64,000 nucleotides of DNA from assembly GCA_965215195.1 (NCBI GenBank), contig CBDCDC010000002.1, positions 4,256,001-4,320,000 of the forward strand, written 5' to 3'. Below, in pieces: positions 7,093-59,744 of the stretch. The translations under genes and the position numbers were made by a program. Origin of the DNA: Candidatus Latescibacterota bacterium (GTDB lineage Bacteria > Latescibacterota > UBA2968 > UBA8231). The notes beneath the pieces are model-generated. The model was given only the letters and a program-made list of their open reading frames with translations. It ran no database searches and was not told where the DNA came from. Within the stretch, counting starts at the first letter, position 1. Each line of letters starts with the position of its first letter.

Positions 7093-7143
7093 TTTTTAAG
7101 GCTTACTGAAGCAACAACCTATAACAGAAAGGAGGTAAGGCTT

Positions 7144-8019: not shown

Positions 8020-8038
8020 TCAACTCAAGGAGGATACC

Positions 8039-10482: not shown

Positions 10483-10507
10483 GTGGCTGCTTTGTCTCCT
10501 GCAAAAA

Positions 10508-10623: not shown

Positions 10624-10673
10624 TGTCGTAGAAGTTCGAGTTCGCCGACTTCATATGGGCTAGCGGCAAAAGA

Positions 10674-11855: not shown

Positions 11856-11978
11856 AAGTAGAAATATAATGAAAATCGACGGTGCAAGAACCGATTTTCA
11901 TGGTTGAAGCACGTCCCGGAGTTCGTTTAGGGCACGGGTCAATAGGTTTCGTCGCGGCGATTCCCGGCAATCACTTTC

Positions 11979-14492: not shown

Positions 14493-14591
14493 GGCGGAGC
14501 GGATGGCTTGGCGCGGCGGTTTTCAACGTCGTTATGGGATTGAAAACTGCCGCGCTGAGCGGGTTCGCCGGTCGAATTGCGAGGTTGTAAC

Positions 14592-27830: not shown

Positions 27831-27836
27831 AGCTCA

Positions 27837-28748
27837 TCATTGCTCCGGCAATAGCGGAAACGACTCGATATCCCCCGCAATGGTCTCCAGCAGGGTGGCG
27901 ATCTCTCGCTTGTCGCCCTCGTCCAGCGCTAGCTTGCCGGCCGGTGCCCGTTCCACCAGCGTGCTGAACACCCCGCGGCGCTTGAGGATATAGCGCATAA
28001 AGGGGTGGTTCTCGAGAAGTATCAACGGCAACAGGCGGCGGTGCATGGCGCGCGCCTCCTCCTCCTGCCCGGCCCACCACAGCTCGGTGATCTTGGCCAG
28101 CACATCGGCCAGCTCGCAGGCGGGCATATTGCCATTGGCGCCGCGGCGCATCTCGTCGGGCAAAAACTTGCCCGCCGCCCCGCCGAAGATGCACTTGACC
28201 CGGTCGCCGACCATCTCGGCCACCTCGGCGATGTGCTTAGGGCCGGGCTGCCGCTCCTCCTTGACGTATTCGACCTGCGGGATCTCGTCGATTAGTTGCG
28301 CCACCTGCTCGCCGCGCAACGGCGCGTACATATCGGCATTCTGCACCATGATCGGCCCGTCAAACACTCCAGCCAACCGCCGGTACATGTCCATGGCCGT
28401 GGCGGCGTCGGTGCGCGCCGGCGTCATGGCGATAATCGAATCTGCCGCGGCTTTTTGCGCCGCCCGCGCATAGAGCAGCACCTGCGGCAGCGAGAGCCCA
28501 GAACAGCCAAAGACCACGGGCAGGCGGCCGTTGACCTCCTCCAGCACCGCGTCCAGCCCCCGGATCCGCTCCTCCTCGCCCAAAAACCAGAACTCCCCAA
28601 CCATCACCGGCCAGACGATGCCGTGCTGGCCGCTCTCGCAGCAGAAATTGGCCACCTTCTTCAGGTCGTCGATGTGGATCTCGAGGTCGTCCCTGTACGG
28701 CGTTGGCAGCAGGCCGAAGACCCCCTTCATGTCGTCAAATCGCGCCAT
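27837..28748 (-). CDS. DapA/NanA-family (DHDPS-like) aldolase/dehydratase
   Basis: KGVFGLLPTPY, GEFWFL.EEER, GRLPVVFG, Schiff-base Lys in YVKEE, GNMPAC. Confidence 0.85.
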   Translation of the reverse strand: MARFDDMKGVFGLLPTPYRDDLEIHIDDLKKVANFCCESGQHGIVWPVMVGEFWFLGEEERIRGLDAVLEEVNGRLPVVFGCSGLSLPQVLLYARAAQKAAADSIIAMTPARTDAATAMDMYRRLAGVFDGPIMVQNADMYAPLRGEQVAQLIDEIPQVEYVKEERQPGPKHIAEVAEMVGDRVKCIFGGAAGKFLPDEMRRGANGNMPACELADVLAKITELWWAGQEEEARAMHRRLLPLILLENHPFMRYILKRRGVFSTLVERAPAGKLALDEGDKREIATLLETIAGDIESFPLLPEQ

Positions 28749-28777
28749 GGTTCATCCTTTCCCGTAATTACTGGTAG

Positions 28778-29071
28778 CTACTCAACGGCCATTATATAGG
28801 GTTCGATTTGCTTTAGGCGCTGCTGATCAATGCCCTTTACGTTGAGCAAGCCCTTTACATTGGAATAGGGGCGGCCCTCGATTATCCTCTGAGCCGTTGC
28901 CGGCCCTATCCCGGGCAGCGTTTCTAGCTGTGTGCGCGAGGCCGTATTGATATCGATGCGCTTTGCCTCGAGTTGAGACAGCGTCGCACAGCTAATCCAT
29001 ATCAGGGCCATGAGTACATAGCCCACAAAATTCCAGCGTTTCACAAGCACCTCCAGTGCGGCAATTTCCAT
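28778..29071 (-). CDS. ComEA-like helix-hairpin-helix protein
   Basis: IDINTAS..QLETLPGIGPATAQRII..RPY....LLNVKGI; hydrophobic N-terminus. Confidence 0.85.
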   Translation of the reverse strand: MEIAALEVLVKRWNFVGYVLMALIWISCATLSQLEAKRIDINTASRTQLETLPGIGPATAQRIIEGRPYSNVKGLLNVKGIDQQRLKQIEPYIMAVE

Positions 29072-29199
29072 AGTTTTTTCGGCTTTTGGACGGTAGGGAA
29101 CGGATCGGTCACATCGACATACCGGCGCAGCGCGGGCCGCTGCGACTTCTGTTCACCGCGCCCCATCCACATAAGTGCAGCGGCCGCAACGCGCCCAGT

Positions 29200-30711
29200 T
29201 CACCGGGTGCGCTCTTTTTGCCTGCGTGCGAAAAGGCGCATCTGTTGCTGAGCCGCAAGTGAGTCGCCCACTTCTCGGTAGGCCACGGCCAAACTATAAT
29301 GGGTGCCGACATAGGTAGAATCGGCCCGCAAAACCGCCTTAAAATCGTCGATGGCCTCCCGGGCCTGGCCCTCGCGCAATTTGGCATTGCCTAGGCCGTT
29401 TATCGCGTCGATGTAGTTTTCCTTTAGCGCCAAAGCGCGCTCATAGGCCGAGCGCGCCTGCACCGGATAGTCTTTCATCAAATAGGCGTTGCCGAGATTA
29501 AACCACGCCAGCGCATAGCCCTCGTCTAACGTCAGGGCTTGGCGATAGGCCGCGATGGCATCGTCAACCCGCTGTAGCCGCAAATAGGCCGTGCCCAAAT
29601 TCTGCCAAGCCTGTATCTGGGCGGGGTTGATCTTCAGGGAGGCTTTGTACTGTTGAGCAGCCGCTTCAGCAAAACCCAACTTAGCGTAGATCACGCCTAA
29701 GTTGTAGCGGGCTACGGCATCGTCGGCGTGGCCTTTTAGGCGCAAACGCTGCTCGCGAATGGTATCGAAATGCGGATCAAGGCGCTTGAACATCTCGATC
29801 TGCCTCTGGCCTTCCTCTGACTTGCCCTGCTTCACATACACTTTGGACAGGGTCAAGTACGCTTCTGGATAGGCCGGGTCTAGGGCGATGCTTTGCTCGA
29901 GTACCGCGGCCGCCTCGGTCTCTTTGCCCTGTTGGGCGAGTACCATGCCCAGCCCATTGAGCGCCTCTACAGCCGCCGAATCGCGCTCAATGGCCGTGCG
30001 AAAGGCCGCCTCCGCTTCTTGGTGGCGATTCAACCGCATGTAGATGCGCCCTAGCGCCGTGCGGTACCGCGCACGCCTAGGCTCTATTTCGACGGCTTTT
30101 CGCGCCATATCCAAGGCCCGTGCGCATTGCCCCATCTTGGCACAGTACATCTCTCCCAAGCTGTAGTACACCAGCGCGTACTCGGGGTCTATTTCCAACG
30201 CTCGCTGCATGTGCTGGGCTGCGGTCCCGTAGTCGTGATCGCGGGCGTGCGCCACGCCTAAGTTGTAGTGGGCCGGAGCGCGATCGGGTGCCAATTGCAA
30301 GGCCCTTGCAAACGCGGCCCGCGCCTTGGCATCGTCGTCCGTGCGCAAATAGAGTTGGCCGAGCTGGCGATAGGCCGCGGCGCTGTCGGGCGCGAGCGCA
30401 ATGGCCTTGCGATATACGGCCAACGCCCGTTCCAACTCGCCCTGCCGGGTCATGACCTCTCCGGCCCCCAGCAGCGCCCCTAGGTGCAGCGAGTCGATGC
30501 GGAAGGTCTCGCTGAAATATCGCAGTGCTTCCCCATACACGGCGTGTTTTAAGTAGAACGCCCCCAGTTCGTAGTGCGCCGCTACGTCGCTGGAATCGGC
30601 GCGAATGCGATTCAAATAACTCAGCTCTATCGCGTGCGGGTCTTCTAGGGCGCCGCCGCAGCCAAAAGCCGTTATCCACGCCAGCCATAGCGCACCGTTA
30701 AACCGCTTCAC
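29200..30711 (-). CDS. Tetratricopeptide-repeat protein, probable lipoprotein
   Basis: Many TPRs (AHYELG, AYRQLG, AHYNLG, ALNGLG, AWQNLG, AWFNLG); N-terminal signal ending AFGC. Confidence 0.88.
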   Translation of the reverse strand: MKRFNGALWLAWITAFGCGGALEDPHAIELSYLNRIRADSSDVAAHYELGAFYLKHAVYGEALRYFSETFRIDSLHLGALLGAGEVMTRQGELERALAVYRKAIALAPDSAAAYRQLGQLYLRTDDDAKARAAFARALQLAPDRAPAHYNLGVAHARDHDYGTAAQHMQRALEIDPEYALVYYSLGEMYCAKMGQCARALDMARKAVEIEPRRARYRTALGRIYMRLNRHQEAEAAFRTAIERDSAAVEALNGLGMVLAQQGKETEAAAVLEQSIALDPAYPEAYLTLSKVYVKQGKSEEGQRQIEMFKRLDPHFDTIREQRLRLKGHADDAVARYNLGVIYAKLGFAEAAAQQYKASLKINPAQIQAWQNLGTAYLRLQRVDDAIAAYRQALTLDEGYALAWFNLGNAYLMKDYPVQARSAYERALALKENYIDAINGLGNAKLREGQAREAIDDFKAVLRADSTYVGTHYSLAVAYREVGDSLAAQQQMRLFARRQKERTR

Positions 30712-30747
30712 GCTCGCCTTGCCCTTTCGCGGATTCTGGCACGGGTC

Positions 30748-32448
30748 CTATAGCTTTTCCGGCTCTTGGACCGCGAGGAACTGATCGACTGCCACGTCTT
30801 CCAACACCTGCTCCACCCCACTCGGCCAGCGAATCTCCACCCGATCCACCCGCGTGCGAGTCCCCAAGCCAAAATGCACCCGCAGCGCATTCTGCGACAG
30901 ATACGAACTGCCCGAGCGCACTTCTTCGACCTGTTTTAAGTCGCCGGCGACCACCCGGATCCGTGCGCCGATGCCGTCGCGGTTGCTCTGCGTACCTATT
31001 GTGTGCACTGCCAGCCAGTGCTGGCGGTTGCCCCCGTCGTTGCGCAGTAGCTGGCCGCGCTGGTTGTTGTTGGCCACGAACAGGTCGAGATCGCCATCGT
31101 TGTCGTAGTCGGCGGTAGCCGCTCCGCGTCCGACCGCGGCGGCGGCCAGCCCGGGCGAGGCAGTGCTGACGTCGGTGAACGTGCCATCGCCGTTGTTGTG
31201 AAATAACTGATCCCGCTGCGCGTAGGAAGGTCCGGCGCGGTCGATAATTTCTATGTTCGGTTCGACGTGCCCGTTGGTTAGGAACAGGTCGAGGTAGCCG
31301 TCGTTGTCGTAGTCGAGCAAGTCCGTGCCAAAGGTCAATGTCGAGAAAGTCGGTTCGTCCAGTTTGGACTCGTGTATCCGGTCCTTAAACACACCGCCCC
31401 GCTCGTTTTTTAACAGGCGACAGTGCTCCCACTGGAAATTGCAGACGACGAGGTCGAGGAGTCCGTCGCGGTCGTAGTCGCCAAAGTCCGTGCCCATGCC
31501 GGCCTCGGGTTTGCCGTCTGGGCTGAAGGCGACGCCAGAACTCAGCCCAACATTGGAAAACCGCGTCCCTCCCTCGTTGCGAAAGAGGAAGTTCGGGGTC
31601 ATATCGTTGGCGACAAACAGATCCGCATCGCCGTCTGCGTCGTAATCGCCAAATACCACGCCGAGCTGACGACAGCGGTCGTTGTAAACGCCCATTGCTT
31701 TTGTCGCGTCGGCAAACGTCCCATTGCCCTCGTTGCGGTACATAATCCCCGACGCGCCCTTGTACTGACCGGGACCGCAGTAGATGCGTGTGGAACCGTG
31801 CCGGCACTCTTTGTGGTTTGCGAGGGTAAAATCGGTATTGTTGGAAACGTAGAGGTCGAGATCGCCATCGTTGTCAATGTCGGCAAAGGCCGCGCTCATG
31901 CTCAAGCGCTCGTCGCCGATGCCAGCGGTCTTGGTCGCATCGACAAATGAACTGTCGCCGCCATTGCGATACAGCACATTGGCACCAAAGTTTGTGACGT
32001 AGAGATCTACGCGACCGTCGTTGTCGTAATCTCCCGCGCAGACACCCATGCCATATCCTTCATCGCCGACGCCTGCTGCCGCGGTTATTTCTTCGAACTT
32101 CCCATTGCCTCGGTTGCGATACAGGGCGTTTTGCGGTACGCGCCGCTCCAAAAAGCCCGGCAATGCGGCCCCATTGACCAAGTAGAGGTCTTCGTCGCCG
32201 TCGCTGTCGTAATCGACAAAAGCCGCTCCCGAGCCATAGGTCTCCACGTAATAGAAGCGACCGCTGCCGCCGTTCACATGCACAAAGTGGATGCCGGCCG
32301 CGGTCGTGGCATCGACGAATTTCGGCAGGGCCTTTCTAGCCAACTTGGGCTTGGGCGCAGTGGCTTTGGTCGCTGGAGCGGGAGTTTCATTTGAGCACCC
32401 CGCGATCAGGGCCACACCCCAGCTAAAGAGAACCGCAACGATGGGCAT
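30748..32448 (-). CDS. CRTAC1-family lipoprotein (FG-GAP/VCBS repeats plus ASPIC/UnbV)
   Basis: Repeated DYDxDGxxDLYV, SNRDGIGARI, SGSSYLSQN..VHFGLG, IRWPSG; lipobox LIAGC. The ORF can extend to 32484. Confidence 0.9.
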   Translation of the reverse strand: MPIVAVLFSWGVALIAGCSNETPAPATKATAPKPKLARKALPKFVDATTAAGIHFVHVNGGSGRFYYVETYGSGAAFVDYDSDGDEDLYLVNGAALPGFLERRVPQNALYRNRGNGKFEEITAAAGVGDEGYGMGVCAGDYDNDGRVDLYVTNFGANVLYRNGGDSSFVDATKTAGIGDERLSMSAAFADIDNDGDLDLYVSNNTDFTLANHKECRHGSTRIYCGPGQYKGASGIMYRNEGNGTFADATKAMGVYNDRCRQLGVVFGDYDADGDADLFVANDMTPNFLFRNEGGTRFSNVGLSSGVAFSPDGKPEAGMGTDFGDYDRDGLLDLVVCNFQWEHCRLLKNERGGVFKDRIHESKLDEPTFSTLTFGTDLLDYDNDGYLDLFLTNGHVEPNIEIIDRAGPSYAQRDQLFHNNGDGTFTDVSTASPGLAAAAVGRGAATADYDNDGDLDLFVANNNQRGQLLRNDGGNRQHWLAVHTIGTQSNRDGIGARIRVVAGDLKQVEEVRSGSSYLSQNALRVHFGLGTRTRVDRVEIRWPSGVEQVLEDVAVDQFLAVQEPEKL

Positions 32449-32489
32449 GTACAAAGGGCACCTATCGCGGGAATCAGACTGCACAGGCG

Positions 32490-35144
32490 TTATTGCAATC
32501 CGGCAAACATGCTCAGAAACAGCACCAGATCCGTCGTCGTCTCGTCGCGGAAATCGCGCCGCTCCCAGCGCCCGCCGATGTTGGTCATCAGGCGATAGCC
32601 CAGATAGTCCGAGCGATTGGATAGCTGTGCAGCAATCACGAACTGTTCAAAATCATCTACGTATCCGGCGGGCAGCGGATCGGTGCGTGCAACCCTGTTC
32701 CTAAAAATCTCGTACTCGATGCCAGACTCTAAGCGCATCGCGTTGATCAGCTCCTGCTGCCACACGAAGAAGAAAATTTCCGCCAGCTCGTCGTTCGCCA
32801 GCTCGCTTTTATCCGTGGGCGAGCGCCGCTTGTAGAGTTGTTTCCACTTGGGCCACAGCACGTGTCGCCCCACCGGAATGGGCAGATCCGCCTTGGTGAT
32901 CAGGGCGAAGAGCGTCTCGTCCTGCCAGTTTGTCGGCTGCTGGTCGCCGCGCTGGTGATAGATCTCGTACTTCAGCTTGGTCTCCAGATTGAACGGGGCG
33001 TATTTGCGCGTCCGCGCACTCAGAAAGGTGGTGTTGATCAGGGCATCCCGCGCGATCATGGGATCGGCAAAGGGGCGCATATCGCCCTGCGTGCGCGGAC
33101 TCTGCACCCACACAATGACGTCTTCGGGGATATTGTCCTCAACGCTGCGCAGGCCGTTGTAGAGCTGCATCTGCAAACCGTGGCGCGGCACCTCGTGCGT
33201 CAGGGTCAGCAAACCGTAGAGCGACTTGTTGCGGCGATTGCTGCTCAGCAGCCACTCGCGCATGCGACCGACCATTATGCGGCTGCCCGGCTTGATTTCA
33301 GCGCCGCCGTAGAGGTTGTAACCGCGGTGGTCGCGCGGATATGGATAGTCCGCTTCCTCGTCGTTCTCAAAGCGGTCGATCACCGTGTTGTTGTTCATGT
33401 CAGTGCCGTAGAGAAACTCCAGCGGATCGACATCGTAGCGCACAAAAGGCTCCAGATAGTCCGGCATGCCGTTGTCGTTTTGGTTGAAGTCCGACACGAG
33501 GTCGTTGTTTTCGTCGTAGCCGGGAAAGACCGCCACGTCAGCCCGCTGGATCAGCAAGCGCTCGGACGAGGAGCTGCTGAAGGTGCGCCGACGCCAGTCG
33601 GGAAAGCGGTCTTGGTCGTCGTTGTCGTCGACGAATTCATAGACGTTGTTTACAGAACTTTCGTAGTTAATGCGCCCGTTGCTGTCGGGCACGAACATAA
33701 AGGTCTGATAGCCCGGGTCCATGCTAAAAATTTCGCCATAGGCAAACCACGGGTACACATTGTGCGACGCCGTTGCGTAGTAGCCCTCGGCGCGCTCTTT
33801 TCCCAGCGCCTGATTGTAGGTGAAGTTCTGGTTGGGAAAGCGGCGGTATTTGCGGTTGATATTGTATTCGGCGCGCAAGTTAAACCCGCCGAAGAGGTCG
33901 TCGATTTCCATGGTGAGACCGGCGACTTCGTTGGCCGTCGGCAAGCCGTAGCTAAAGCGCACCACGCGCTGGTTGGAGCCGTCCTTGATATTCTTCTCCG
34001 CGCGGGCGACGGGCAAAAATACGGGCTCGCCCGTGTTGTTGACCTGCATATTGGAAGTGACTTCAACGGCGTAGTCGTTGGCCAAGACCAGCTCGATCTC
34101 GATCTTTTTGATTTCCTTGAAGTCGATGATTTCGTCTTCGTCGGGAATGGGCGTGAAGTCGCGCTCAATGTCGTAGGTAATGACGATGTTGTTGCCGCCG
34201 CTGGCCTCCCAGCGACCCTGCCGCCGAATGCCGCCGTCAACCAGCGCCCGGTCGGAAATTTCGGGATGCTCTACGCCATTTATGTACACGCGGTGCAAAA
34301 AGAGCAACGCCCCCCCTTCGCCGTCCTCGGGCGAATCGTCGGACAGACGCACCAAGAGGCGCTGCACGTTGCCCGCCTGTAGGTTGCCGCCGAGTGTGCC
34401 TTTGAGAGAGTTGTTGCCAAAGCTCTCCGAGCTGTTCCAGTGGCCGGCGTTGACGTAGGTGGTGCCCAGCTTGATAAAGTCGCCAACTTGGGCCGTGCCG
34501 CGCAGGCCGATCAGATTGGTGAAAATCGTGCGCACCGTGGCTCCTTGGTCGCGGTTGGTCGCCGTGGCTGCCAGAGCGGGGTTATCCGTGCGTGAGGCGA
34601 TTAGCGTCAGGGCGTATTTGTCGGAGAGGAAATCCCACTGCACGCCGTTGAACAGGGGTTTGGAAAAGGTCATCGGCGTCAGCGTCGTCCTCAGTTGCTC
34701 GCCCACGGTCAGGGCCATGTGGTATTGGCCTTGCGACGCCATTGAAATGACTAGGTTGTTGAACCAGTTGTTGAACTCCACGGACTTGTCGATCGCGCTG
34801 CCCGTTTCCGTGGGGTGCTGTTGCGCCCACTCGTAGATCTTCCAGCCGCGCGTGATGTAATTTCCGTAGATGTCGTAAAAGCGCTGGCCCTGCAGCACGA
34901 TGTCGGTATAGCGCTCGTAGCGATCTCTGGCGTAGTTGGTGTACTCCCAGTTTTTCCATCCGTAGATATCGTAGAGCGTCTGGGGCAGATACCATTTCCG
35001 CATAGTCGGCGCGATGGTCTGGGGCGATATCCGCACCCCACTGGTGACATAGGGGTTGAGAAAACCCGATTGCAGGCCTTCGGCTAACGCTCCACCTGCC
35101 AAAAGGCAACCCGTTAGCAGAGCACCGAAAAACTTCCGGCCCAT
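32490..35144 (-). CDS. Large secreted hypothetical protein (884 aa), probable outer-membrane beta-barrel with Ca-binding-like loops
   Basis: RBS agggagg; signal peptide (LLAGGALA); aromatic-rich N-terminus; acidic loops DDNDDQD, DENNDLVSD, DMNNNTVID; alternating-pattern strands at the C-terminus. Confidence 0.6.
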   Translation of the reverse strand: MGRKFFGALLTGCLLAGGALAEGLQSGFLNPYVTSGVRISPQTIAPTMRKWYLPQTLYDIYGWKNWEYTNYARDRYERYTDIVLQGQRFYDIYGNYITRGWKIYEWAQQHPTETGSAIDKSVEFNNWFNNLVISMASQGQYHMALTVGEQLRTTLTPMTFSKPLFNGVQWDFLSDKYALTLIASRTDNPALAATATNRDQGATVRTIFTNLIGLRGTAQVGDFIKLGTTYVNAGHWNSSESFGNNSLKGTLGGNLQAGNVQRLLVRLSDDSPEDGEGGALLFLHRVYINGVEHPEISDRALVDGGIRRQGRWEASGGNNIVITYDIERDFTPIPDEDEIIDFKEIKKIEIELVLANDYAVEVTSNMQVNNTGEPVFLPVARAEKNIKDGSNQRVVRFSYGLPTANEVAGLTMEIDDLFGGFNLRAEYNINRKYRRFPNQNFTYNQALGKERAEGYYATASHNVYPWFAYGEIFSMDPGYQTFMFVPDSNGRINYESSVNNVYEFVDDNDDQDRFPDWRRRTFSSSSSERLLIQRADVAVFPGYDENNDLVSDFNQNDNGMPDYLEPFVRYDVDPLEFLYGTDMNNNTVIDRFENDEEADYPYPRDHRGYNLYGGAEIKPGSRIMVGRMREWLLSSNRRNKSLYGLLTLTHEVPRHGLQMQLYNGLRSVEDNIPEDVIVWVQSPRTQGDMRPFADPMIARDALINTTFLSARTRKYAPFNLETKLKYEIYHQRGDQQPTNWQDETLFALITKADLPIPVGRHVLWPKWKQLYKRRSPTDKSELANDELAEIFFFVWQQELINAMRLESGIEYEIFRNRVARTDPLPAGYVDDFEQFVIAAQLSNRSDYLGYRLMTNIGGRWERRDFRDETTTDLVLFLSMFAGLQ

Positions 35145-35185
35145 TTGTTCCCTCCCTTTTTTACTGCTGCACAACGCGTACTGGT

Positions 35186-37504: not shown

Positions 37505-37522
37505 GGCACATCCTCGAAAGCG

Positions 37523-39472
37523 TTAGTAGGCCACCGCAATGGTGCGCGTGCGCGTGAAATCACCCGCGTCCGTCTCGACGGCAAGTCGGGCGAGGTATAG
37601 GCCCGGCGCCACGCGCCCCGTCCCCTCTCCCCGCCCATCCCACTCTTCGACATAACGCCCTTCGCTCCTCGAATCGGCCACTAGTGTGCGCACTTTGCGT
37701 CCGCGCAAATCGCAGATTGCAAAGACCACCCGGCTGGCCTGTACGCCCAGCAGTGAATAGGCCAGTTCAAGCGCGTCGTTGCGCCCGTCGCCATTCGGCG
37801 TCACTACGGCCGATCCCACGTCTAATGCGCTCAGCACCTCTAACCCCTCGCTCGGTGCCAGCACCTCGATGGAATTGGTCGATACCTCCGCGTTGGCATC
37901 TCCGGGATCGATAGATTGGGGCTGTCCTGCTCCCCCGACGACAAACACCTCGCCCTGAAACAGGGCGTTGAAACTGAAGATGCCCGTTTTGAACAGCAGC
38001 CGCAGGGGCCTGTTGTCTGCGGCCGCGATGCGATTGGACGGAAAATAGACGATCAGCTCGCTTTGTCTCTCCGCAATGCTGTCGGGCGCCACAGGGACCA
38101 AGGGGTCGCCCATTTCCAGTCCTATAAACTGGACGCGGGCCGGGGTGTGCAGCCTCAAGGCGTCAAAACCCGACTTGGTCGCCGACTCAAAGTCGGCCCG
38201 CACGTCAAAAGTGAAAATGCGCTCCTCGCCCAAGGGCACTTCCGTCTTGCGCCCGAGCGGCTGGGGTTCGTCCTGTAAGGCGACCTCCCCGACGACCGCA
38301 TCGACCAGCAGAGGCGAGTATTCTACGACCAGCGAATCCATCTGACCGTAGGTAAACAAATCCTCGCTCTTCATTGTGAAGTTGATTTTGAGATACTGCC
38401 GATTATCCGGCGAAAGGATCTCTAGGCCCTCGCCGCCGGACGCTTCTTGCGGCACCGACCAGAAGCTCCAGTTGTCCACGTCGGGCCGCTCCGGCCCCCG
38501 GGCTCTAGGGCGCACATAATCGTCGCGCGGCGCCTTATCCCATTCGGCAAAACTCACTTCGCGCTCGGTCCTCAGCTCGGTGTATATGCTGTAAATCTGT
38601 GGCGTATCGTCCCGGCCGGTCTGCGTTTCTAGCGAAAAGGAGATGGGATTTGCTGGCAAAAGTTCGGGTTCGCTGTCTATGCTCTCTTTGGAAAACCCGT
38701 TGAAATAGGGTATGGCCCGCCCGAAGTTGACCGGCTCGCCGATGTCGATCACCTTGGAGATGTATTGCGATTTTTGCACAAAACCCTCGCCGTAAAACTC
38801 CACCTCGGCGATGACGCCCAGTTGCGGGAAGTTTAAGAAAATGAACTGCAGGGGCTGGGTGGGAAAACGGGCATTGGCGATGCGCGTGGTCTGGTTGAGA
38901 TTCTGCTCCAGCAAAAGGTCAAACTGCCCTTGCTTAAAGCGCTCGCCATCAATGGCAGCCCAAACTTCATACAGCTTGGGATAGGCATTTTTGAGCGGCA
39001 AACCCGGCGTGATCCGCTTGCGGTCGTCGGTCTGCGTGCGCCCTTCGGCTGGAGCAAAAAAGCGGATGCGATTGATGGGCAATTCCCAACCTAGGTTGTA
39101 GTAATAAAAGCCGGAGACAATGGCTACTGACCGGGTCGTGTCGCCATCTACTGTATATATAAACCCATTATCTCCGAGGACCTCGGGCTGGCCGGGAATG
39201 AGGCGTGCGGCGTGCGGCCCAGCCCGTTCTCCCCCCCAGGGGTTGCCGAAGACATCCGCGCGCGAGCTGCCCTTCTTCTCGCCCAGCGCGATATTGACCG
39301 CTGGGTCCAATTCGTAGGGTTGCAGACTGCCGCCCACGACCCACATGCCGCCCATCAACTCGGCTAGTTCTTCCCAGCCGTTATCTCCTGTCCCCAGCAC
39401 CCATCGCTCTACCTGTGCCTCTGCAAAGCGAGGGGCCAATAGCAAAAGAGCTAGTGCCACTAGGTGCTTCAT
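37523..39472 (-). CDS. Secreted protein with C-terminal FlgD-Ig domain (paralog 2)
   Basis: Signal peptide; EVEFYGEGFV, TQTGRDDTP, WSFWS, GFDA, TPNGDGRND...WDGRG...APGLY; ends TIAVAY. Confidence 0.75.
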   Translation of the reverse strand: MKHLVALALLLLAPRFAEAQVERWVLGTGDNGWEELAELMGGMWVVGGSLQPYELDPAVNIALGEKKGSSRADVFGNPWGGERAGPHAARLIPGQPEVLGDNGFIYTVDGDTTRSVAIVSGFYYYNLGWELPINRIRFFAPAEGRTQTDDRKRITPGLPLKNAYPKLYEVWAAIDGERFKQGQFDLLLEQNLNQTTRIANARFPTQPLQFIFLNFPQLGVIAEVEFYGEGFVQKSQYISKVIDIGEPVNFGRAIPYFNGFSKESIDSEPELLPANPISFSLETQTGRDDTPQIYSIYTELRTEREVSFAEWDKAPRDDYVRPRARGPERPDVDNWSFWSVPQEASGGEGLEILSPDNRQYLKINFTMKSEDLFTYGQMDSLVVEYSPLLVDAVVGEVALQDEPQPLGRKTEVPLGEERIFTFDVRADFESATKSGFDALRLHTPARVQFIGLEMGDPLVPVAPDSIAERQSELIVYFPSNRIAAADNRPLRLLFKTGIFSFNALFQGEVFVVGGAGQPQSIDPGDANAEVSTNSIEVLAPSEGLEVLSALDVGSAVVTPNGDGRNDALELAYSLLGVQASRVVFAICDLRGRKVRTLVADSRSEGRYVEEWDGRGEGTGRVAPGLYLARLAVETDAGDFTRTRTIAVAY

Positions 39473-39487
39473 GCTCAGTTTTCCGCG

Positions 39488-41380
39488 TTAATAGGCTACG
39501 TGGATTAGGCGCATGCGGTTGACTTCGTCGGCAGCCGCCTCTATCGAGGCTCTTGCGATATAGGTCCCCGGTGGCACCACAGCGCCGGCATTGTTCGTTC
39601 CGTCCCAGTGCCACTGGGTATAACGTCCGGCGGTTAGGGCATCGGAGAGCACGTTTTTTATTAAGCGACCCGAAAGATCGTATATGAGCAGTTCGGCCGC
39701 GACGGGCTGCACCAAGTGGATGAGCACAAAAGAGAAGATGGACGAATCGTTTATGCCATCGCCATTGGGCGTTATAGCCGGCGGAGAAACGGAAAAGGAC
39801 TGCAGTACGCTTTCGCCGCTGGCGAGGAAAATTACCTCCTGCGAATCCGTGCCCACTTCCCGCGTCGCGTCGCCTTCGGCAATGCGCTGGGGAAGGCTGC
39901 CGGTCGTATCTAGAAGTTGTCCCGTAAACTGGGTGGCAAAGAGCAGGGCTTGCGAGCGAAACGTAATCCGCAGACGCATGTCTTCTCCGGTGCTAATGCG
40001 CCGGGACGGAAAGTAAACGCGCAAACCCGTATCGTCCACGCGCACGCTATCCGGCTGTATTTCCGTTAATTCGTCCCCCATTTCGAGCTTGAGAAACTCG
40101 GGCTGTATCAGCGTTGAGATGCGCACGCCGTCAAAGCCCGTTCCCGCGCCCAAGTCGGCCTTTATGTCGTAGGTAAAAACCGTATCCCGACCGGCCGGAA
40201 CGGACGCGCGCCCACCGGCCGGAAAGGGATCGTCCAATAGAGCCACTTCGCTCCATGCCCGCGCGGCCAGCGGCGGCGTATGCACGATGGCTAGGCTATC
40301 GACCTGCATGCTCGCGGAGGTATTGCCCTCAAAGCGCAGGCGCACTTGAAAAAAATCGCGCGGCCCCGGCAGATCCAGCGGAATGGAGAACGCGCCGCTG
40401 GAGTCGGCGACGAGCGGCTCCGTCCAGGAGGACCAGTGCGTGGCGTCCGGGCGGATGCTGCCCTTGAGGACTGACGGTAGGTCGTCGTACTCTTCTTTGC
40501 TGACCAGCACTTCCGACTGGGTCTCTACGTCGGCGATCTGGTAGTAGTCGAGAGGCGTTTGGTCCGTGCCGTTGCGCATCTGCACGATCACCCGCACTTG
40601 CTCGTCGGCACCCGCGCTGCTTTCGCCTTCCTCGGACAGCGAAACTTTGCGCGCGCGAAAAGTCAATGCGCCGTAGTTGACGGGCTGGGCAAACTGGATG
40701 AGCTGGGTTTCGTAGAGCCCACGCGGCACAAAGCCTTCGCCGTGGACCTCGATTTCCGCCAGCTCAAAGGGGTTGGGTGAAAGCACTCTGAGTTGAATAA
40801 AGCGCACCAGTTGCGTTGGGAAGCGCGCATCCACTCTTGGATCGCGGTTGATCGTCACTTGGCGCACGGCCTCGTAAACGGGCGAGTCATTGGCGTCGAA
40901 AGTGCGCCCGTCATTGAGTGATATTTCGTAGCCAGCGACGAACTCATCCTCTCCTGCACGCGGGTAAAATACAATCTGGCTAACTGGGAACGAAGCCCCG
41001 AGATCTAAGAAAAAAATGCGTCCGCGCTGATTGACCCCCACTTCCTTAAAGCGATTTTCCGTGCTGGTCGTGCCATCTCCGTCCACCAGAACCTCAGACC
41101 CTGCAATGCCCCGCGCCGAATTGTTCCACACCCGTCCGTTGCCCTCGGCGATAAAGCTGCTGGGTGCGCCGACCCCCCAGACGATGAACTGAGTTATATT
41201 CTGATCGAGTGAAAAGCTGGCCGGCCCCAAGACTTGTCCTGCGCCTACTACTACCCCCGCCATAGTCTGCGCCGGCTCGGCCCAGTCTTGCCCGCCCAAG
41301 CCGACCCCCCAGACATCGGCTCGCAGGTCCGCCGCCCCAATACAGAACGGCAGGATTAGCCCGACCAAGGAAGCCCTCAT
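39488..41380 (-). CDS. Secreted protein with C-terminal FlgD-Ig domain (paralog 1)
   Basis: Signal peptide; EIEVHGEGFV, MRNGTDQTP, WSSWT, GFDG, TPNGDGIND...IYDLSGR...WDGTN..G..VPPGTY; ends LIHVAY. Confidence 0.75.
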   Translation of the reverse strand: MRASLVGLILPFCIGAADLRADVWGVGLGGQDWAEPAQTMAGVVVGAGQVLGPASFSLDQNITQFIVWGVGAPSSFIAEGNGRVWNNSARGIAGSEVLVDGDGTTSTENRFKEVGVNQRGRIFFLDLGASFPVSQIVFYPRAGEDEFVAGYEISLNDGRTFDANDSPVYEAVRQVTINRDPRVDARFPTQLVRFIQLRVLSPNPFELAEIEVHGEGFVPRGLYETQLIQFAQPVNYGALTFRARKVSLSEEGESSAGADEQVRVIVQMRNGTDQTPLDYYQIADVETQSEVLVSKEEYDDLPSVLKGSIRPDATHWSSWTEPLVADSSGAFSIPLDLPGPRDFFQVRLRFEGNTSASMQVDSLAIVHTPPLAARAWSEVALLDDPFPAGGRASVPAGRDTVFTYDIKADLGAGTGFDGVRISTLIQPEFLKLEMGDELTEIQPDSVRVDDTGLRVYFPSRRISTGEDMRLRITFRSQALLFATQFTGQLLDTTGSLPQRIAEGDATREVGTDSQEVIFLASGESVLQSFSVSPPAITPNGDGINDSSIFSFVLIHLVQPVAAELLIYDLSGRLIKNVLSDALTAGRYTQWHWDGTNNAGAVVPPGTYIARASIEAAADEVNRMRLIHVAY

Positions 41381-42111
41381 TGCCTATTCACTAGTTCGGG
41401 CGGTGGCTGAAACCCCTTAAACACCTCGCGCTGAAAGTGAAAGGTCAGATCCTTGGTCTGCACGGGCTCGTTGCGGTAATTGTAGCGCAGTGCAATGCCT
41501 CGGACGTGGATGGAAAACTCCGTCACGTCCGGGGCTAGGCTCGGAAAAACGACAAAACCCTCTGCCTCTTGGCCGCTGAAGATGATCTGCTCCTGAAACA
41601 TAGTGCGCTTGAGCACGTCCTCGCGCTCGTTAAAGCGCCGGTATTCGTTGCCGGCATATCCCTGAATAAACGAATAGTAGTATTCTAGGAGCTGCAGTGG
41701 TTCTAAGGGCGCGTACTTGCGATACCCATCCTTTGAAACCAGCTCGATCTCGAGGGGATCGACGCCGACTTTGGGGTAGGCGTAGTTTTTAACTTTTAGC
41801 AGCCACACGCTGTGTTTGGGCGGCGTCCACTCTTCGCCCATGCGCTTCCAGTCGCCGAAAGTGTAGGGATTGGTCGATACGGGCCCCTGGGTGGAGTGCT
41901 GGGGGAATTTGCGGTTCAATTCGGCGTCGGTCATAGGGCGCAGACCGATCTCCAGCCGCTCGAACGAATAGGTGATCAAGCCATCGTCTTTAATCACCAT
42001 ATCGGCCTCCTGTTGCCCTTGCGGGGCTGGCTGAATTGGCCCGTCGAAATAACGCCCACATCCTGCCAACATCGCTAGGGAACAAAGCCACGAACCACAC
42101 CGCACCATCAT
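41377..42111 (-). CDS. Hypothetical lipoprotein
   Basis: Lipobox MLAGC; stop overlaps the start of the next gene; the ORF track extends to 42150. Confidence 0.7.
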   Translation of the reverse strand: MMVRCGSWLCSLAMLAGCGRYFDGPIQPAPQGQQEADMVIKDDGLITYSFERLEIGLRPMTDAELNRKFPQHSTQGPVSTNPYTFGDWKRMGEEWTPPKHSVWLLKVKNYAYPKVGVDPLEIELVSKDGYRKYAPLEPLQLLEYYYSFIQGYAGNEYRRFNEREDVLKRTMFQEQIIFSGQEAEGFVVFPSLAPDVTEFSIHVRGIALRYNYRNEPVQTKDLTFHFQREVFKGFQPPPELVNRQ

Positions 42112-42136
42112 GTTAACCTCGGGAAGTATAATTGTA

Positions 42137-42164
42137 TTGGGCGGCGGCATCTGCCGCCGCCCAA
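42137..42164 (-). other. Intra-operon stem-loop after the CBM9-like gene
   Basis: Perfect 13-bp inverted repeat ttgggcggcggca / tgccgccgcccaa; no U-tract. Confidence 0.6.
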
Positions 42165-42187
42165 CCTGTGGTCAAAGGACCGTTCAG

Positions 42188-43114
42188 TTAGTCGTTGAAG
42201 GTCGCTTTGATTCTTGCCCAGCTCTCGGATTCCACGGCGGTGCCTCCGCCATCGGCGCGATCGTACTCGTCCGCGCCGAGCAGCGTGTATTCCGAGCAGA
42301 CATCGCAGTTGCCCGAAGCGCCGTCCTCGCCGGTTGTTGCTAGCTGGTGCGTACGGCGATCTTCGGGATTATCCGCTTCGTTTAGCTGATAGGTCAGGCG
42401 GATGATCTGCCCGGCCTCGTTGTCGTGGCGGATGCTGTTGTCCGCACCGTCCAACGACGCAAAATCCCAAAGGGGAATGCTGTATTCGTAGTTGACCGTG
42501 ACGTTGGTCGAACCGGTGGTTGCTCCCGGAGGATTGGTCGTCACTCTGGACTCGGCGAACTCGTCCATCCAGTGGATTTCCTCGACCACCTGCCAGCGCA
42601 ACCACCACGAGCCATCGCCGCCATAGGGCGTTTCATACACGCCGGGAACCGGCAGGTGCATGGTAAACTGCTGCCCCTCGGCGCGTGTGCCCGACTCGCC
42701 GTCGCCGTCGTGCGGACCGCCGCTGGCATTGGCGTCGGTGATGATCTCGAGATCGTCGTCGCGCCAGCCGTCGTCAAAGACGTCCGAGGTGACGACCAGC
42801 GTGTCGTCGGTGGCGCGCACAAATCCGTAGAGCTTGTTGTCGCGGTCCGTGCCCGTCCACGCCGTCATGATGGCCACGTCGAGGTCGCTCTTGTCCAGCA
42901 CTTCGGCCTTCTGGATTTCGTACATCTCGTCGGGACCAACGGTGAAATTGGCGTCGAACCACGCCCAGTCGCCATCGTCGCCATCAATGGTGATGGTGAC
43001 ATCAGCAGGCACCTCTAAGGCAAAGTAGCCAATGCCGTTGGCATTGGACTGGCCGTAGGCGAAGCTCGCCAAGGCCACGGACAACACTGCTGCTATGAGT
43101 GCGTTCTTGTGCAT
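42188..43114 (-). CDS. Secreted CBM9/DOMON-like acidic protein with C-terminal SWARIK motif
   Basis: Signal peptide (SFAYG-Q); ITIDGDDGDW, LYGFVRATDD, WRDDDLEIITD, YEYSIP; ends GGGTAVESESWARIKATFND. Confidence 0.65.
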   Translation of the reverse strand: MHKNALIAAVLSVALASFAYGQSNANGIGYFALEVPADVTITIDGDDGDWAWFDANFTVGPDEMYEIQKAEVLDKSDLDVAIMTAWTGTDRDNKLYGFVRATDDTLVVTSDVFDDGWRDDDLEIITDANASGGPHDGDGESGTRAEGQQFTMHLPVPGVYETPYGGDGSWWLRWQVVEEIHWMDEFAESRVTTNPPGATTGSTNVTVNYEYSIPLWDFASLDGADNSIRHDNEAGQIIRLTYQLNEADNPEDRRTHQLATTGEDGASGNCDVCSEYTLLGADEYDRADGGGTAVESESWARIKATFND

Positions 43115-43240
43115 ATTTTTCTCCTTATTTGGATAGGGTAGAGATGTTGCTCTTCTCTGCTTCTGCAGTTGCGAATGCTGTATCCATTCACCTCCTTCCG
43201 CATTTAGAGTAGGGCGATCTGGGCTCGTCTATGGGTAGCG

Positions 43241-45004
43241 CTACTGCTCTAGGTTAGACAGGGCCTGTTCGTCAATAACTATCTCAGTCCTGTACTTATG
43301 CTTCAACTCATCTAGATAGCTATCAAAGTATTCTTCAATCGCGTGCCGATGGGCGTAGCGCAATTGACGCCATATTCTGGACTGCACCTTGGGGGCAGCA
43401 AAAGAGAGGGTCTTTTCCGGGCGCAGTGCCAGCACTTTGAGCACGAGGTACCCGGTCATAGCGCCGCTCAACTCAATGGGGAGCGGTCCCTTGATGCCGC
43501 CAACCGGCATATCCCGCACGGCTTGGATCATGGTGGCCATAGCGCCTTGGGCTGTCGCCGTGTCAGCCAGCGCGAAGTTAAATACGTCGAACTGACGTAC
43601 GCGCCCCTTAAATGCCGGATACGTGCGCATGATCTCGGCCATATCCTCGCCGGCGCGTACGCGCCGGGCGATGGCGTGCGAAGCCGTTTCCGAATCGACC
43701 AATGCACCGGCAAAAAATGTGCGCACCGGCAGGGTGAATTCCTCTGTTAGGTCCCGATATAGAATGCGCTGCTGTTCCTCTGTGACGAAGTGCGCTTCTA
43801 CTTCCATGCGCCGCAGCATCTCGATCATGGCCTCTTCGCGCGTATCCCGCACGAACTGAAGCACGGCCTCCTCGCGGTCCAACCCTTGTTGCTGGGCCAG
43901 CAGCGGTAGCAGGATTTTGCGCAACGCTTCGTGCTGGGCAAATTCGACCACCGCGCTGCTGTCTATGGCGTGGGGGCGACGCTTGGGTTCGGCCTCCTCT
44001 ACCAAAGCCACATACGCGTTCAGGTCAATGCGCCCTCCGCTATGGCGCAGCAGGATGCGCCCGTGGTCTCCTGCCTCCAGCACGGGCACACCGCCTTCGG
44101 CCAATCGCCCCCGTTGCAGCAAAACGCCCAATACCTGTGCATCTACTGAAAGACCAAAGTGCGCTTTCTGGTCGGCTAAGTATTTGGACCAGCGCTCTTT
44201 TTTTTGCTGCTTTTCCAGCGCTTGGCGCAGCGTTTTCTTTTGGCTCGCAAAACTGACGTAGCGCTCTTCATCGGCCCTGATCAGGTGGTACGTTCCCTGC
44301 GAGTCGCGGTACGGTTCGGACACCTCGCCGATCGGCAGGCGAAAAAGCTCGGCGACAAACCCGCTGTGCTGTGCTTCTTCCTCCTGCCAAAACCCCGTGT
44401 CTCCACCCTTGGCCGCCGATGTGCGATCGAGGGACTGCTCGCGCGCCAGTAGCGCAAAATCGGCACCTTGCCGCAACTGCTCCTGCACGGCCCGAGCTTC
44501 TTCGAGGCTGCCTACCTGAATGTGACTCGCCCGCAGCTCCCGCTTTTTGTGCAATCCGCTCTGGTGGAAATGCGACCGGAGTTCCTCTTCCGCTATGGAA
44601 ACGTCTCCGGTGACTTCCTCGTACAGACGCTCGACCAGCCTCCGGTCGTGCGCCTGTTGTACGCTTGCGACCACGTCGGGATGCTGATCCAAACCCTTCG
44701 CCCGGGCCTCTAAGACCAGCATCTTGCGCTCGATAAAAGGCTGTAGCATTTCCCGCGCATTGCCCGCTGTAAAGCGGCGCATCTTGCGCTCGGCGCGGAG
44801 CAAGTCATCTACCAGAATGACTTCGCTCCCGACCCTGGCCAGCACGACCGAATTCACAGCCCAGGCACCGCCGGCCATCAGCCCGACAATCGCCATCGCG
44901 GCCCAGCAGGTAGCCATCTGTCCAGCGCAAACCAGTGCTCTCTTTGCCGCTGCTAACTCAATGCTCATAAAGCAGTTATGTTCCATTGCAACCTGTGAAA
45001 GCAT
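43241..45004 (-). CDS. PpiC-type peptidyl-prolyl isomerase (SurA/PrsA-like)
   Basis: VLARVG, EARAKGLD, RASHIQV, GADFALLAREQSLD..SAAKGGDTG, GEVSEP; second degenerate parvulin unit. True start uncertain. Confidence 0.82.
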   Translation of the reverse strand: MLSQVAMEHNCFMSIELAAAKRALVCAGQMATCWAAMAIVGLMAGGAWAVNSVVLARVGSEVILVDDLLRAERKMRRFTAGNAREMLQPFIERKMLVLEARAKGLDQHPDVVASVQQAHDRRLVERLYEEVTGDVSIAEEELRSHFHQSGLHKKRELRASHIQVGSLEEARAVQEQLRQGADFALLAREQSLDRTSAAKGGDTGFWQEEEAQHSGFVAELFRLPIGEVSEPYRDSQGTYHLIRADEERYVSFASQKKTLRQALEKQQKKERWSKYLADQKAHFGLSVDAQVLGVLLQRGRLAEGGVPVLEAGDHGRILLRHSGGRIDLNAYVALVEEAEPKRRPHAIDSSAVVEFAQHEALRKILLPLLAQQQGLDREEAVLQFVRDTREEAMIEMLRRMEVEAHFVTEEQQRILYRDLTEEFTLPVRTFFAGALVDSETASHAIARRVRAGEDMAEIMRTYPAFKGRVRQFDVFNFALADTATAQGAMATMIQAVRDMPVGGIKGPLPIELSGAMTGYLVLKVLALRPEKTLSFAAPKVQSRIWRQLRYAHRHAIEEYFDSYLDELKHKYRTEIVIDEQALSNLEQ

Positions 45005-45144
45005 GAATAGCTTAAAAAAGACCCTGTGTCAAGTGGCCTCTTCCACGTCGATATTCATGGCCGGTGCTCGGCGACTCCCATCTTCCAGCACCTATTTTAG
45101 ACGCCAACGGGCCTAGCATCTAACCCGATCTTTTTTGCCGCGCC

Positions 45145-46713: not shown

Positions 46714-46787
46714 AAAAATGACCTTCTTTATTGTTTTTTTTATTCAGGACTACAACGTAACCAATTTGCCAAAGGGGAAGCAACGCA

Positions 46788-59674: not shown

Positions 59675-59744
59675 GGTAGAAGTTGAGGAACGGGCGCGAG
59701 CTTAGATCGTCATCTTAAGAATGAAATTTTACAAAAAGGCGGGC

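Follow-up and report, generated by a model that had tools for sequence, protein, structure and literature searches.

The polysaccharide utilization loci (PULs) built around SusC and SusD are present as many paralogous loci per genome with a conserved core order. They combine a large barrel with surface proteins resembling carbohydrate-binding modules (CBMs) and a lipoprotein, and have importers of the inner membrane as well as genes for sugar catabolism in their vicinity. In Bacteroidota, proteins of the ASPIC/FG-GAP type are frequent neighbors of these PULs. Here, a gene cassette is described, which resembles the PULs in all of these respects, including the frequent ASPIC/FG-GAP neighbors. 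It is located on the minus strand of a DNA stretch of 64,000 nucleotides from a Candidatus Latescibacterota bacterium (GenBank assembly GCA_965215195.1, contig CBDCDC010000002.1, positions 4,256,001 to 4,320,000), which is called the window in the following; coordinates are positions in this window unless another contig or locus is named. The cassette encodes a parvulin-type foldase, an acidic exported protein of 308 amino acids (aa; p308), a lipoprotein of 257 aa, three related exported proteins (PAR-A, PAR-B and PAR-C) and a predicted outer-membrane beta-barrel of 884 aa.

In contrast to the PULs, the barrel of the cassette has neither a Plug or TonB_dep_Rec domain nor a sequence relation to SusC, and a SusD is absent. 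The binding proteins, which are lipoproteins in the PULs, appear to be sorted to the surface by type IX secretion system (T9SS) domains. Furthermore, the cassette loci harbor their own parvulin and are nearly devoid of carbohydrate-active enzymes (CAZymes).

A second arrangement to be compared is known from the T9SS of Bacteroidota. Here, according to two reports, cargo whose C-terminal domain (CTD) is of type B is handled and anchored by a PorP/SprF barrel encoded adjacently (PMC9143113, PMC12618676). The pairs SprB-SprF and PG1035-PorP have in common with the cassette that CHU_C-like cargo is encoded directly upstream of the barrel, that several pairs are present per genome and that a T9SS translocon exists. 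However, the cassette barrel comprises 884 aa and does not match PF11751, three differentiated cargo proteins are present per barrel, and a CBM9-like protein, a lipoprotein and a foldase are added. The sorting domain of the cassette cargo is borderline type B, and a binding between cargo and barrel is proposed by analogy.

On the level of the fold, the systems LptD-LptE, MtrB-MtrA/C and SlpA of Deinococcus are the closest ones, since they share the size class of the barrel, a fold-level resemblance and a lipoprotein encoded beside the barrel. Nevertheless, no sequence similarity is present (0 profile matches in the PDB), the TM values are only around 0.2, and the cassette lacks cytochromes, genes for lipopolysaccharide (LPS) transport and S-layer homology (SLH) domains. 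The acidic EF-hand-like loops and the copy number are unique to the cassette.

The cassette belongs neither to the SusCD PULs nor to the PorP/SprF pairs, though working, in our reading, like parts of both, and no match to a characterized system was found by sequence. A description of it was not found in a full-text literature search, which left aside the supplementary tables of PMC8163846 and PMC12618676 that might list its orthogroups or CTD-barrel models; the same kind of search revealed nothing on type IX secretion in Latescibacterota. In the passages considered from PMC7081726 and PMC8163846 the system is not mentioned, and in those of a further study the passage across the outer membrane is assumed to occur via non-specific porins (PMC4454575).

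Copy number and conservation of the cassette

The locus is one of approximately 37 copies of a multiplied cassette, the core of which consists of parvulin, p308, lipoprotein, PAR-A, PAR-B, PAR-C and barrel in this order. Within this core the parvulin is variable, and lipoproteins of the ASPIC and of the tetratricopeptide repeat (TPR) type often follow after the barrel. The genome has a size of 6.13 Mb at 95.2% completeness; in it, the barrel was detected as 53 open reading frames (ORFs) by BLASTP and as 50 gene calls by hidden Markov models (HMMs), grouped in 37 loci. Using the HMMs, 119 PAR genes (a family defined by the PAR core region), 37 p308 genes, 18 genes for lipoproteins of the 257-aa type, 40 parvulin genes and 81 ASPIC genes were counted. 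Taken together, the five core families barrel, PAR, p308, lipoprotein and parvulin comprise 264 genes, which make up 8.5% of the DNA. At a distance of no more than 10 kb from a barrel, 92 of the 119 PAR, 28 of the 37 p308, 14 of the 18 lipoprotein and 29 of the 40 parvulin genes are found, compared with only 25 of the 81 ASPIC genes. The order p308 - lipoprotein - PAR - PAR - PAR - barrel is repeated on contig C2 of this genome, for example at 1172338, 3072348 and 3681042. A chance run of co-oriented genes was considered as well and is ruled out, because this order is found again at numerous loci, paralogous as well as orthologous ones.

The original prediction had proposed a dedicated surface complex as a functional analog of a PUL. 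The conserved module of barrel, lectin-like proteins, lipoprotein and foldase speaks for this, whereas the idea of a single operon has to be given up in favor of one out of ~37 loci. Due to these paralogous loci the analogy to the PULs is even stronger than had been realized. Its outline of an HMM survey of gene order and copy number led to a conserved order (58 of 67 loci, described below) and to the 37 loci in the genome.

Other sub-architectures are also present, comprising parvulin - PAR (~1020-1110 aa) - barrel - TPR as well as tandem double and triple barrels. Tandem doublets and triplets of a divergent barrel subfamily are seen at L029:5679-14325, L059:5596-14407 and L050:4783-15214 and on contigs C59, C68 and C224 of genome G001, and tandem barrel runs occur in other families of the phylum, too. 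After the triplet in L029 and L059, genes with DUF5683, fn3 and DUF4159 domains follow, in L029 together with a gene for a TPR/YfiO-like protein of 1080 aa. In L046 the barrel is followed by a TPR/YfiO-like gene of 1090 aa and by ExbB/ExbD. The tandem (triple-)barrel form may represent an older version. In the subtype parvulin - PAR - barrel (L054:11313-13547, L056:11283-13607, L062:6393-8642), where the PAR of L054 and L056 has a size of ~1030-1090 aa, a TPR gene stands after the barrel. In L056 and L062 this TPR protein also contains a PMT_2 domain (GT-C glycosyltransferase-like), a neighborhood that hints at a glycosylation of envelope proteins.

For other genomes, a scan of the GTDB genomes revealed 519 relatives, and the best 80 loci were annotated with HMMs made from the genome under study. 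These 80 loci stem from metagenome-assembled genomes (MAGs) titled Candidatus Latescibacterota/Latescibacteria, Gemmatimonadetes/-ota and, in one case, Handelsmanbacteria. At 67 of them at least 2.5 kb of upstream DNA was available for a judgment, and these loci are not independent, many being orthologs in close relatives. A PAR gene is located directly upstream of the barrel on the same strand in 58 of the 67 loci. Regardless of position, 65 of them carry a PAR gene, 55 carry p308, 50 the lipoprotein and 45 the parvulin. Out of 151 sampled genomes of the phylum, 95 harbor the barrel and 75 the PAR core. In family f1 the barrel is present in all 64 genomes and the PAR core in 61 of these, both are also found in the families f6, f9, f11, f12 and f13, and neither was detected in f2 (0/30), f3 (0/18) and f4 (0/2). 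In f5, f7 and f10 strong barrel matches were obtained by profile search, often as tandem runs, and the PAR query matched nothing there. Three genomes of one family, G060 and G086 (genus g5) and G148 (genus g18), contain 46-68 barrel candidates with best E values of only 1e-50 to 1e-79, in which the PAR core was not matched with the query used. They may represent a divergent expansion with different partners.

The genes downstream of the cassette are less constant. The tail composed of a helix-hairpin-helix (HhH) protein, a DapA-like enzyme, a substrate-binding protein (SBP) and a permease is kept in four of six informative loci of the same genus (L067, L070, L071 and L072) and differs in L073 and L074, with the barrels of all six being 94-95% identical. 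At L065, from another genus, the order PAR-C - barrel - ASPIC - TPR is followed by two more proteins with sorting domain and an enzyme of the enolase superfamily. The HhH, DapA-like and ABC genes are not parts of the cassette and their link to this locus holds only within the genus. The original prediction had let the gene row run straight into DapA and the ABC transporter, which is correct for the window and in line with an enrichment of CUT1 loci throughout the genome (see below); as a fixed feature, however, it fails with only four of six loci in the genus and its loss in L065. The enzyme gene behind the cassette also differs by genus, being of the MR_MLE enolase superfamily in L065 (5528-6685) versus the DHDPS family in the window (27837-28748). 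Both families are known from sugar-acid catabolism, and these neighbors may point, if only weakly, to the class of substrate for this group of orthologs.

Assembled contigs from RNA libraries (four libraries of two studies, one half recorded as 'sponge metagenome' and the other half as 'metagenome') stem from a relative with ~92% identity. One of these contigs, X4 with 11,255 nucleotides, covers positions 32047-43231 and thereby p308, the lipoprotein, PAR-A, PAR-B, PAR-C, the barrel and the start of ASPIC, and the ABC genes are found on other contigs than X4. The bins at ~29100-30400 have zero cover in X2 and X4 and almost zero in X3, which cannot be taken as a sign of a break. These contigs document presence in RNA libraries and neither transcription nor a single transcript, and their depth cannot rank the genes.

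The predicted barrel, its candidate cargo and further partners

For the 884-aa protein, Pfam and NCBIfam contain no matching family, neither for the whole protein nor for the segments 40-135, 238-400 and 478-606 (Pfam searched up to an E value of 5), and a profile search of the PDB sequences gave 0 matches. In a database clustered at 90%, at least 758 homologs are present, all of which are annotated as 'hypothetical' and have no Pfam domain; their sources are MAGs labelled Latescibacteria/-ota or Gemmatimonadetes/-ota. When 1.84 billion representatives were searched with a profile, 1239 matches were obtained at E <=0.001. Within the genome, the barrel paralogs are 25-63% identical.

An AlphaFold2 (AF2) model based on 77 sequences reached a pLDDT of 84.8 and a pTM of 0.81. 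From its secondary-structure string, counted by eye, ~22-24 long antiparallel strands were deduced, as well as an insertion rich in beta structure at ~240-400. All Foldseek matches with E <0.001 and all top VIA matches are membrane beta-barrels, among them SlpA/SDBC, MtrB, FimD/PapC, LptD, TonB-dependent transporters, Omp85/TamA, PgaA/BcsC and porins. This likeness is distant, with a best Foldseek E value of 1.9e-7, TM values of ~0.2 and a best VIA Z score of 13.7. SlpA/SDBC of Deinococcus is the top Foldseek match (E 1.9e-7) and also gives the longest structural alignment (413 residues, Z 11.4). The model supports the original prediction of a putative barrel, and the protein is, as judged from this predicted fold, an outer-membrane beta-barrel of a new family.

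Across the barrel paralogs, the block 561-600 is conserved best, and it is part of an acidic loop region (500-605). This region contains three EF-hand-like motifs (506-517, 544-565 and 582-593), in which the D/N/E columns are invariant or nearly so. Based on the motif pattern, we read these loops as putative calcium-type loops. Furthermore, the N-terminal segment 44-130 is aromatic-rich and conserved. At the C-terminus, F876 is invariant in the last strand and the protein ends with FAGLQ, thus not on an aromatic residue.

The proteins PAR-A, PAR-B and PAR-C share 27-30% identity with each other, which is 30% over the full length for PAR-A and PAR-B. The C-terminal domain of all three matches the Pfam families FlgD_ig and CHU_C (cut-off 27 bits each). 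PAR-A reaches 29.7 bits for FlgD_ig and 24.0 bits for CHU_C, PAR-B remains below both cut-offs (22.2 and 21.6 bits), and PAR-C reaches 33.5 bits for CHU_C and 29.7 bits for TIGR04131, for which the cut-off is 35. SprA (TIGR04189) is present in the genome with 499 bits (C1:253818-258179). These C-terminal ends are, as far as profile matches can tell, T9SS sorting domains, closest to type B but borderline. Since they carry such ends and SprA is encoded in the genome, the PAR proteins are regarded as T9SS cargo. The original prediction had labelled the same ends 'FlgD-Ig' and missed this link. Throughout the genome, 205 gene calls, amounting to 7.5% of the DNA, carry a sorting domain of the FlgD_ig/CHU_C type, so that the predicted T9SS secretome is unusually large. 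PorP_SprF (PF11751, a model of 273 positions) was not matched in the 95.2% complete genome; control genomes were likewise without a match, and its absence is therefore not established.

The N-terminal parts of the PAR proteins appear to be lectin-like with tandem discoidin/CBM32 folds. For PAR-C, an AF2 model obtained with an alignment of 72 paralogs is all-beta with a pLDDT of 91.6 and a pTM of 0.84, and Foldseek matched it to the CBM32-1/2 tandem of ZmpB, an F-lectin, the lectin domain of galactose oxidase and the b1b2 domains of neuropilin. For the discoidin pair of neuropilin the target-normalized TM is 0.46-0.50. On profile level F5_F8_type_C (PF00754) matches PAR-C only among the paralogs (28.3 bits versus a cut-off of 28.2). 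A carbohydrate as ligand is suggested by these predicted folds only.

The position of a PAR gene relative to the barrel is reflected in its size, with medians of 775, 686 and 628 aa for the positions -1, -2 and -3, respectively. At 36 loci with a triad, the best match in another locus stands at the same position for 103 of 108 proteins; if only matches below 45% identity are regarded, this drops to 67 of 108. Accordingly, the split into A, B and C is considered old but not strictly kept. A complex prediction of the barrel (44-884) with the end of PAR-C (672-772) resulted in a score of 0.00 against a mark of 0.32, which speaks neither for nor against binding.

The further members of the cassette are less well-defined. 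The protein p308 has no Pfam match even at E 5, and neither a lipobox nor a sorting domain was found in it. In the Atlas, its clusters of feature neighbors contain CBM9_1 in 13-94% of their members with scores of 0.93-0.98, and its resemblance to CBM9, derived from language-model features only, serves as a lead. The 257-aa lipoprotein carries the lipobox LAGC after an internal Met and has no family in Pfam or NCBIfam and no match to SusD. Its Atlas neighbors belong to lipoprotein clusters without a name from Gemmatimonadota and Latescibacterota, and a lipobox-like motif is present in 16 of its 18 paralogs in the genome. The parvulin starts with a hydrophobic anchor or signal, remains under the cut-offs of the NCBIfam PPIase models and is a frequent member of the cassette.

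Downstream of the barrel, ASPIC is also found in the orthologs including L065 from the other genus, and is regarded as an accessory gene loosely linked to the cassette. Similar TPR proteins of 400-620 aa are encoded at many of the loci in the genome, which makes the TPR lipoprotein a recurrent accessory, usually paired with ASPIC. The HhH (ComEA-like) protein is the sole BLASTP match of its kind in the genome and follows the TPR gene only in orthologs of the same genus; it is a neighbor outside the cassette.

Genomic surroundings and possible function

In 20-kb intervals around the 37 loci, 164 gene calls without a label and with a length of 170 aa or more were present, of which 160 were scanned with Pfam, the other four being proteins of the window that had been scanned already. 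Recurrent neighbors are a protein with DUF6785 and DUF6784 (~650 aa, at 10 loci), TPR proteins and components of CUT1 and Opp ABC transporters, followed by GFO/IDH/MocA oxidoreductases, PhyH dioxygenases and GDSL esterases. Sigma or anti-sigma factors and hybrid two-component regulators were not detected among the 160 scanned neighbors.

Two kinds of inner-membrane proteins are enriched near the barrels. DUF6785, a polytopic family with 10 or more hydrophobic segments, is present in 44 full copies plus fragments in the genome (for example L031:6740-8677 and L053:772-2754, both on the minus strand). Within 20 kb of a barrel 30 of these 44 copies are located versus 11.5 expected, with a maximum of 22 in 1000 randomizations. 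In other genomes, ORFs of a similar length recur at a set place in certain subtypes of the locus, as judged by length and not by Pfam. For DUF6785, phmmer found only chance matches in the PDB and a full-text search of the literature no mention. Within 15 kb of a barrel, 7 of 12 loci of CUT1 permeases are found (2.56 expected, P 0.005) as well as 4 of 5 loci of binding proteins (1.06 expected, P 0.011). The DapA-like (1/5) and XylB-like (1/2) genes showed no such enrichment.

By analogy to the PULs, the explanation we tentatively prefer, and which appears quite possible without reaching an even chance, is a module for capture and uptake at the cell surface, in which lectins displayed by the T9SS cooperate with a barrel of a new kind. 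Here, the foldase would chaperone the clients of its own locus after Sec export, and the barrel would become part of the outer membrane. Via the T9SS, all three PAR proteins would leave the cell and remain on the surface at the barrel of the neighboring gene, just as cargo of type B in Bacteroidota is kept by the adjacent PorP/SprF barrel. Their discoidin domains may bind a glycan or glycoconjugate and the barrel may let this ligand pass, with p308, which is predicted to be periplasmic, and the lipoprotein assisting at the barrel. Uptake would be completed by an inner-membrane importer encoded nearby, the CUT1 ABC transporter at this locus and DUF6785 or an ABC transporter at others. The paralogous loci would then represent a substrate-specific repertoire, similar to PULs in function but made from unrelated parts. 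A more far-reaching version has a fair chance, though it is less likely than not. It regards the cassette as a new nutrient machine class of its own in Latescibacterota, where the ~22-24-stranded barrel with its calcium-type loops is dock for PAR-A, PAR-B and PAR-C and channel at the same time, built by the foldase, coupled to DUF6785 as a new family of inner-membrane transporters and present in dozens of substrate-specific copies, as a convergent counterpart of SusCD that does not depend on TonB.

Several results weigh against an uptake function. A plug, a TonB box or another energizing element was not found in the barrel, leaving active uptake unexplained, and among the 160 neighbors only one glycoside hydrolase (a GH5) is encoded, unlike in PULs. 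Within the barrel, loop regions are conserved rather than variable, with the highest conservation in the acidic loop region and at the N-terminus; this argues for a shared structural contact or a contact to a machinery rather than for substrate specificity. A foldase of its own is not what an uptake locus usually contains, and its presence in each locus would suit the assembly of a surface structure. At L065, whose barrel is 65% identical, ABC and DapA genes are absent after the cassette. With the PMT_2-containing TPR proteins in mind, the membrane partners, including DUF6785, may modify proteins instead of importing solutes. Moreover, the anchoring by the barrel leans on a sorting domain that is borderline type B, as PAR-A and PAR-B are under the cut-off of CHU_C and TIGR04131 is under its own.

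Some of these points would be explained by a display platform for adhesins, the main rival reading, which we consider somewhat unlikely. Here, the barrel would only be anchor or shuttle for the PAR proteins exported by the T9SS, as an analog of PorP/SprF, binding of glycans from a host (e.g., a sponge) or from particles would be the purpose, and the copies would provide binding diversity or surface variation and not transport. The type B-like sorting domain (CHU_C with 33.5 bits in PAR-C), the order of PAR followed by barrel in 58 of 67 loci, and discoidin and F-lectin folds as classic adhesion modules are in line with this. The same holds true for the few glycoside hydrolases, for the foldase of each locus together with the PMT_2 and TPR neighbors, which would suit a decorated surface structure, and for the relatives in RNA-library contigs recorded as 'sponge metagenome'. 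Without a PorP_SprF match another anchor would be needed in this genome, but the control genomes also lack such a match, so that the absence here is not established. Furthermore, 884 aa and ~22-24 strands are far beyond the need of an anchor, considering the 273 positions of the PorP_SprF model, and neither the enrichment of two inner-membrane protein kinds near the cassettes nor a CBM9-like protein without signal for surface sorting would be explained. That the barrel is instead an usher- or secretin-like pore of a dedicated export or assembly machine for the PAR proteins or for a polysaccharide, with the parvulin as dedicated chaperone, is improbable. Ushers (FimD/PapC), the barrels PgaA/PelB/BcsC and LptD are among the fold matches, periplasmic chaperones specific for a locus are typical of chaperone-usher systems, and porins for exopolysaccharides are accompanied by TPR proteins. 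Yet the TM to the ushers is only ~0.2, the parvulin is not PapD-like, a second export route would be redundant for proteins with a T9SS sorting domain in a genome encoding SprA, and genes for polysaccharide synthases or polymerases were not found among the scanned neighbors of the 37 loci. Similarly improbable in our view is a structural element of the envelope, in which abundant SlpA-like barrels tether or organize the outer membrane and a coat of PAR proteins and have no ligand-specific role. It would account for SlpA/SDBC as best Foldseek match and longest alignment and for calcium-type loops as the most conserved part, as in a structural lattice, but SLH and peptidoglycan-binding domains were not matched by Pfam, a single role is hard to reconcile with fifty divergent paralogs (25-63% identity) and varied accessory genes, and the linkage to importers speaks against it as well.

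If the preferred reading of a capture and uptake module is true, a widespread uncultured phylum with sponge-associated lineages spends ~8.5% of one genome on an envelope system of unnamed families. This would be a second independent solution to the task fulfilled by SusCD in Bacteroidota, and T9SS sorting domains would be used for multi-subunit surface complexes on a new barrel outside the Bacteroidota. At least four unnamed families, namely barrel, PAR core, lipoprotein and DUF6785, would obtain provisional roles. Number and types of the loci would serve as a marker to compare the substrate range or the surface diversity of Latescibacterota across habitats. Even if the adhesin platform applies, the barrel would likely anchor a substantial part of the 205 T9SS cargo proteins, in a genome that gave no match to PorP/SprF.

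Gene content of the locus and the remaining window

The features of the locus are listed in the table below in the order of transcription. For the labels, the ORF list, Pfam and NCBIfam were used and the N-termini were read by eye.

Features of the cassette locus and its direct neighbors (positions in the 64,000-nucleotide window)
Feature	Position	Strand	Basis and remarks
FGGY carbohydrate kinase	45145..46713	-	FGGY_N and FGGY_C; closest to XylB TIGR01312, 226 bits (cut-off 380); upstream neighbor
Parvulin-type peptidyl-prolyl isomerase (PPIase), 587 aa	43241..45004	-	Pfam Rotamase_2, Rotamase, Rotamase_3; PrsA/SurA/PpiD-like foldase
p308, acidic exported protein, 308 aa	42188..43114	-	No family
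Lipoprotein, 257 aa	41377..42150	-	No family
PAR-A, 630 aa	39488..41380	-	Signal peptide, beta-sandwich domains, putative T9SS-type C-terminal sorting domain
PAR-B, 649 aa	37523..39472	-	Architecture like PAR-A
PAR-C, 772 aa	35186..37504	-	Discoidin/CBM32-like domains, then Ig-like sandwiches, then putative T9SS sorting domain; always the gene adjoining the barrel
Predicted barrel, 884 aa	32490..35144 (ORF 32490..35174, ATG at 35144)	-	No family; fold prediction
FG-GAP/VCBS and UnbV_ASPIC (CRTAC1-like) lipoprotein	30748..32484	-	Pfam; lipobox IAGC
TPR lipoprotein, 503 aa	29200..30711	-	Pfam TPR families; lipobox AFGC
Small HhH (ComEA-like) exported protein	28778..29071	-	HHH_3, 63.5 bits
DHDPS-family (DapA-like) aldolase or dehydratase	27837..28748	-	Pfam
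SBP_bac_1 binding protein of CUT1-type sugar ABC importer	26472..27830	-	Pfam
Two BPD_transp_1 permeases of CUT1-type importer	25576..26592, 24737..25594	-	Pfam

According to the ORF list, the genes form a row on the minus strand without break from 46713 down to 24737, with distances, calculated from the ORF coordinates, ranging from an overlap of 4 bases up to 140 bases. Type I signal peptides were read in p308, PAR-A, PAR-B, PAR-C and the barrel. The original prediction had described the ten genes from parvulin to HhH as co-oriented, closely spaced and mostly exported, in agreement with the ORF list and the N-termini. It had also stated that no TonB-dependent receptor, SusD or glycoside hydrolase is encoded among them, and indeed none of the ten proteins has a match to the Plug, TonB_dep_Rec, SusD or glycoside-hydrolase families in Pfam and NCBIfam; the 21 Plug-domain matches of the genome are all located outside the cluster. 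Its gene labels could be retained by Pfam for PPIase, ASPIC, TPR, ComEA-like, DapA-like and ABC, whereas the CBM9-like protein has no Pfam match at E 5 and a discoidin profile is found in one paralog only. For the xylulokinase named upstream, an FGGY kinase closest to XylB is present, but its score is below the cut-off of this model.

A scan for promoters and terminators at 27500-47000 gave values not above those of shuffled sequences (promoter-like 4 versus 6.3; terminator-like 25 versus 18.7). Within the intergenic gaps of this region no terminator-like site was found on the minus strand.

Elsewhere in the window, a CusCBA-like set for heavy-metal efflux (OEP, HlyD with heavy-metal-binding domain, ACR_tran) is encoded at 8-6470 and a heavy-metal P-type ATPase with HMA domain at 14577-16820. 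The region 6001-12000, which may have been acquired as an island, has a GC content of 0.55-0.59 versus 0.57-0.66 in the rest of the window; encoded there are a DNA methylase (9433-10482), an ATPase of the AAA_14/DUF4143 type and two ORFs that have no family. Finally, an outer-membrane protein of the FadL/Toluene_X family, to which PorV belongs, is encoded at 62302-63906, and at 59721-61307 a response regulator that is fused with a PglZ domain.

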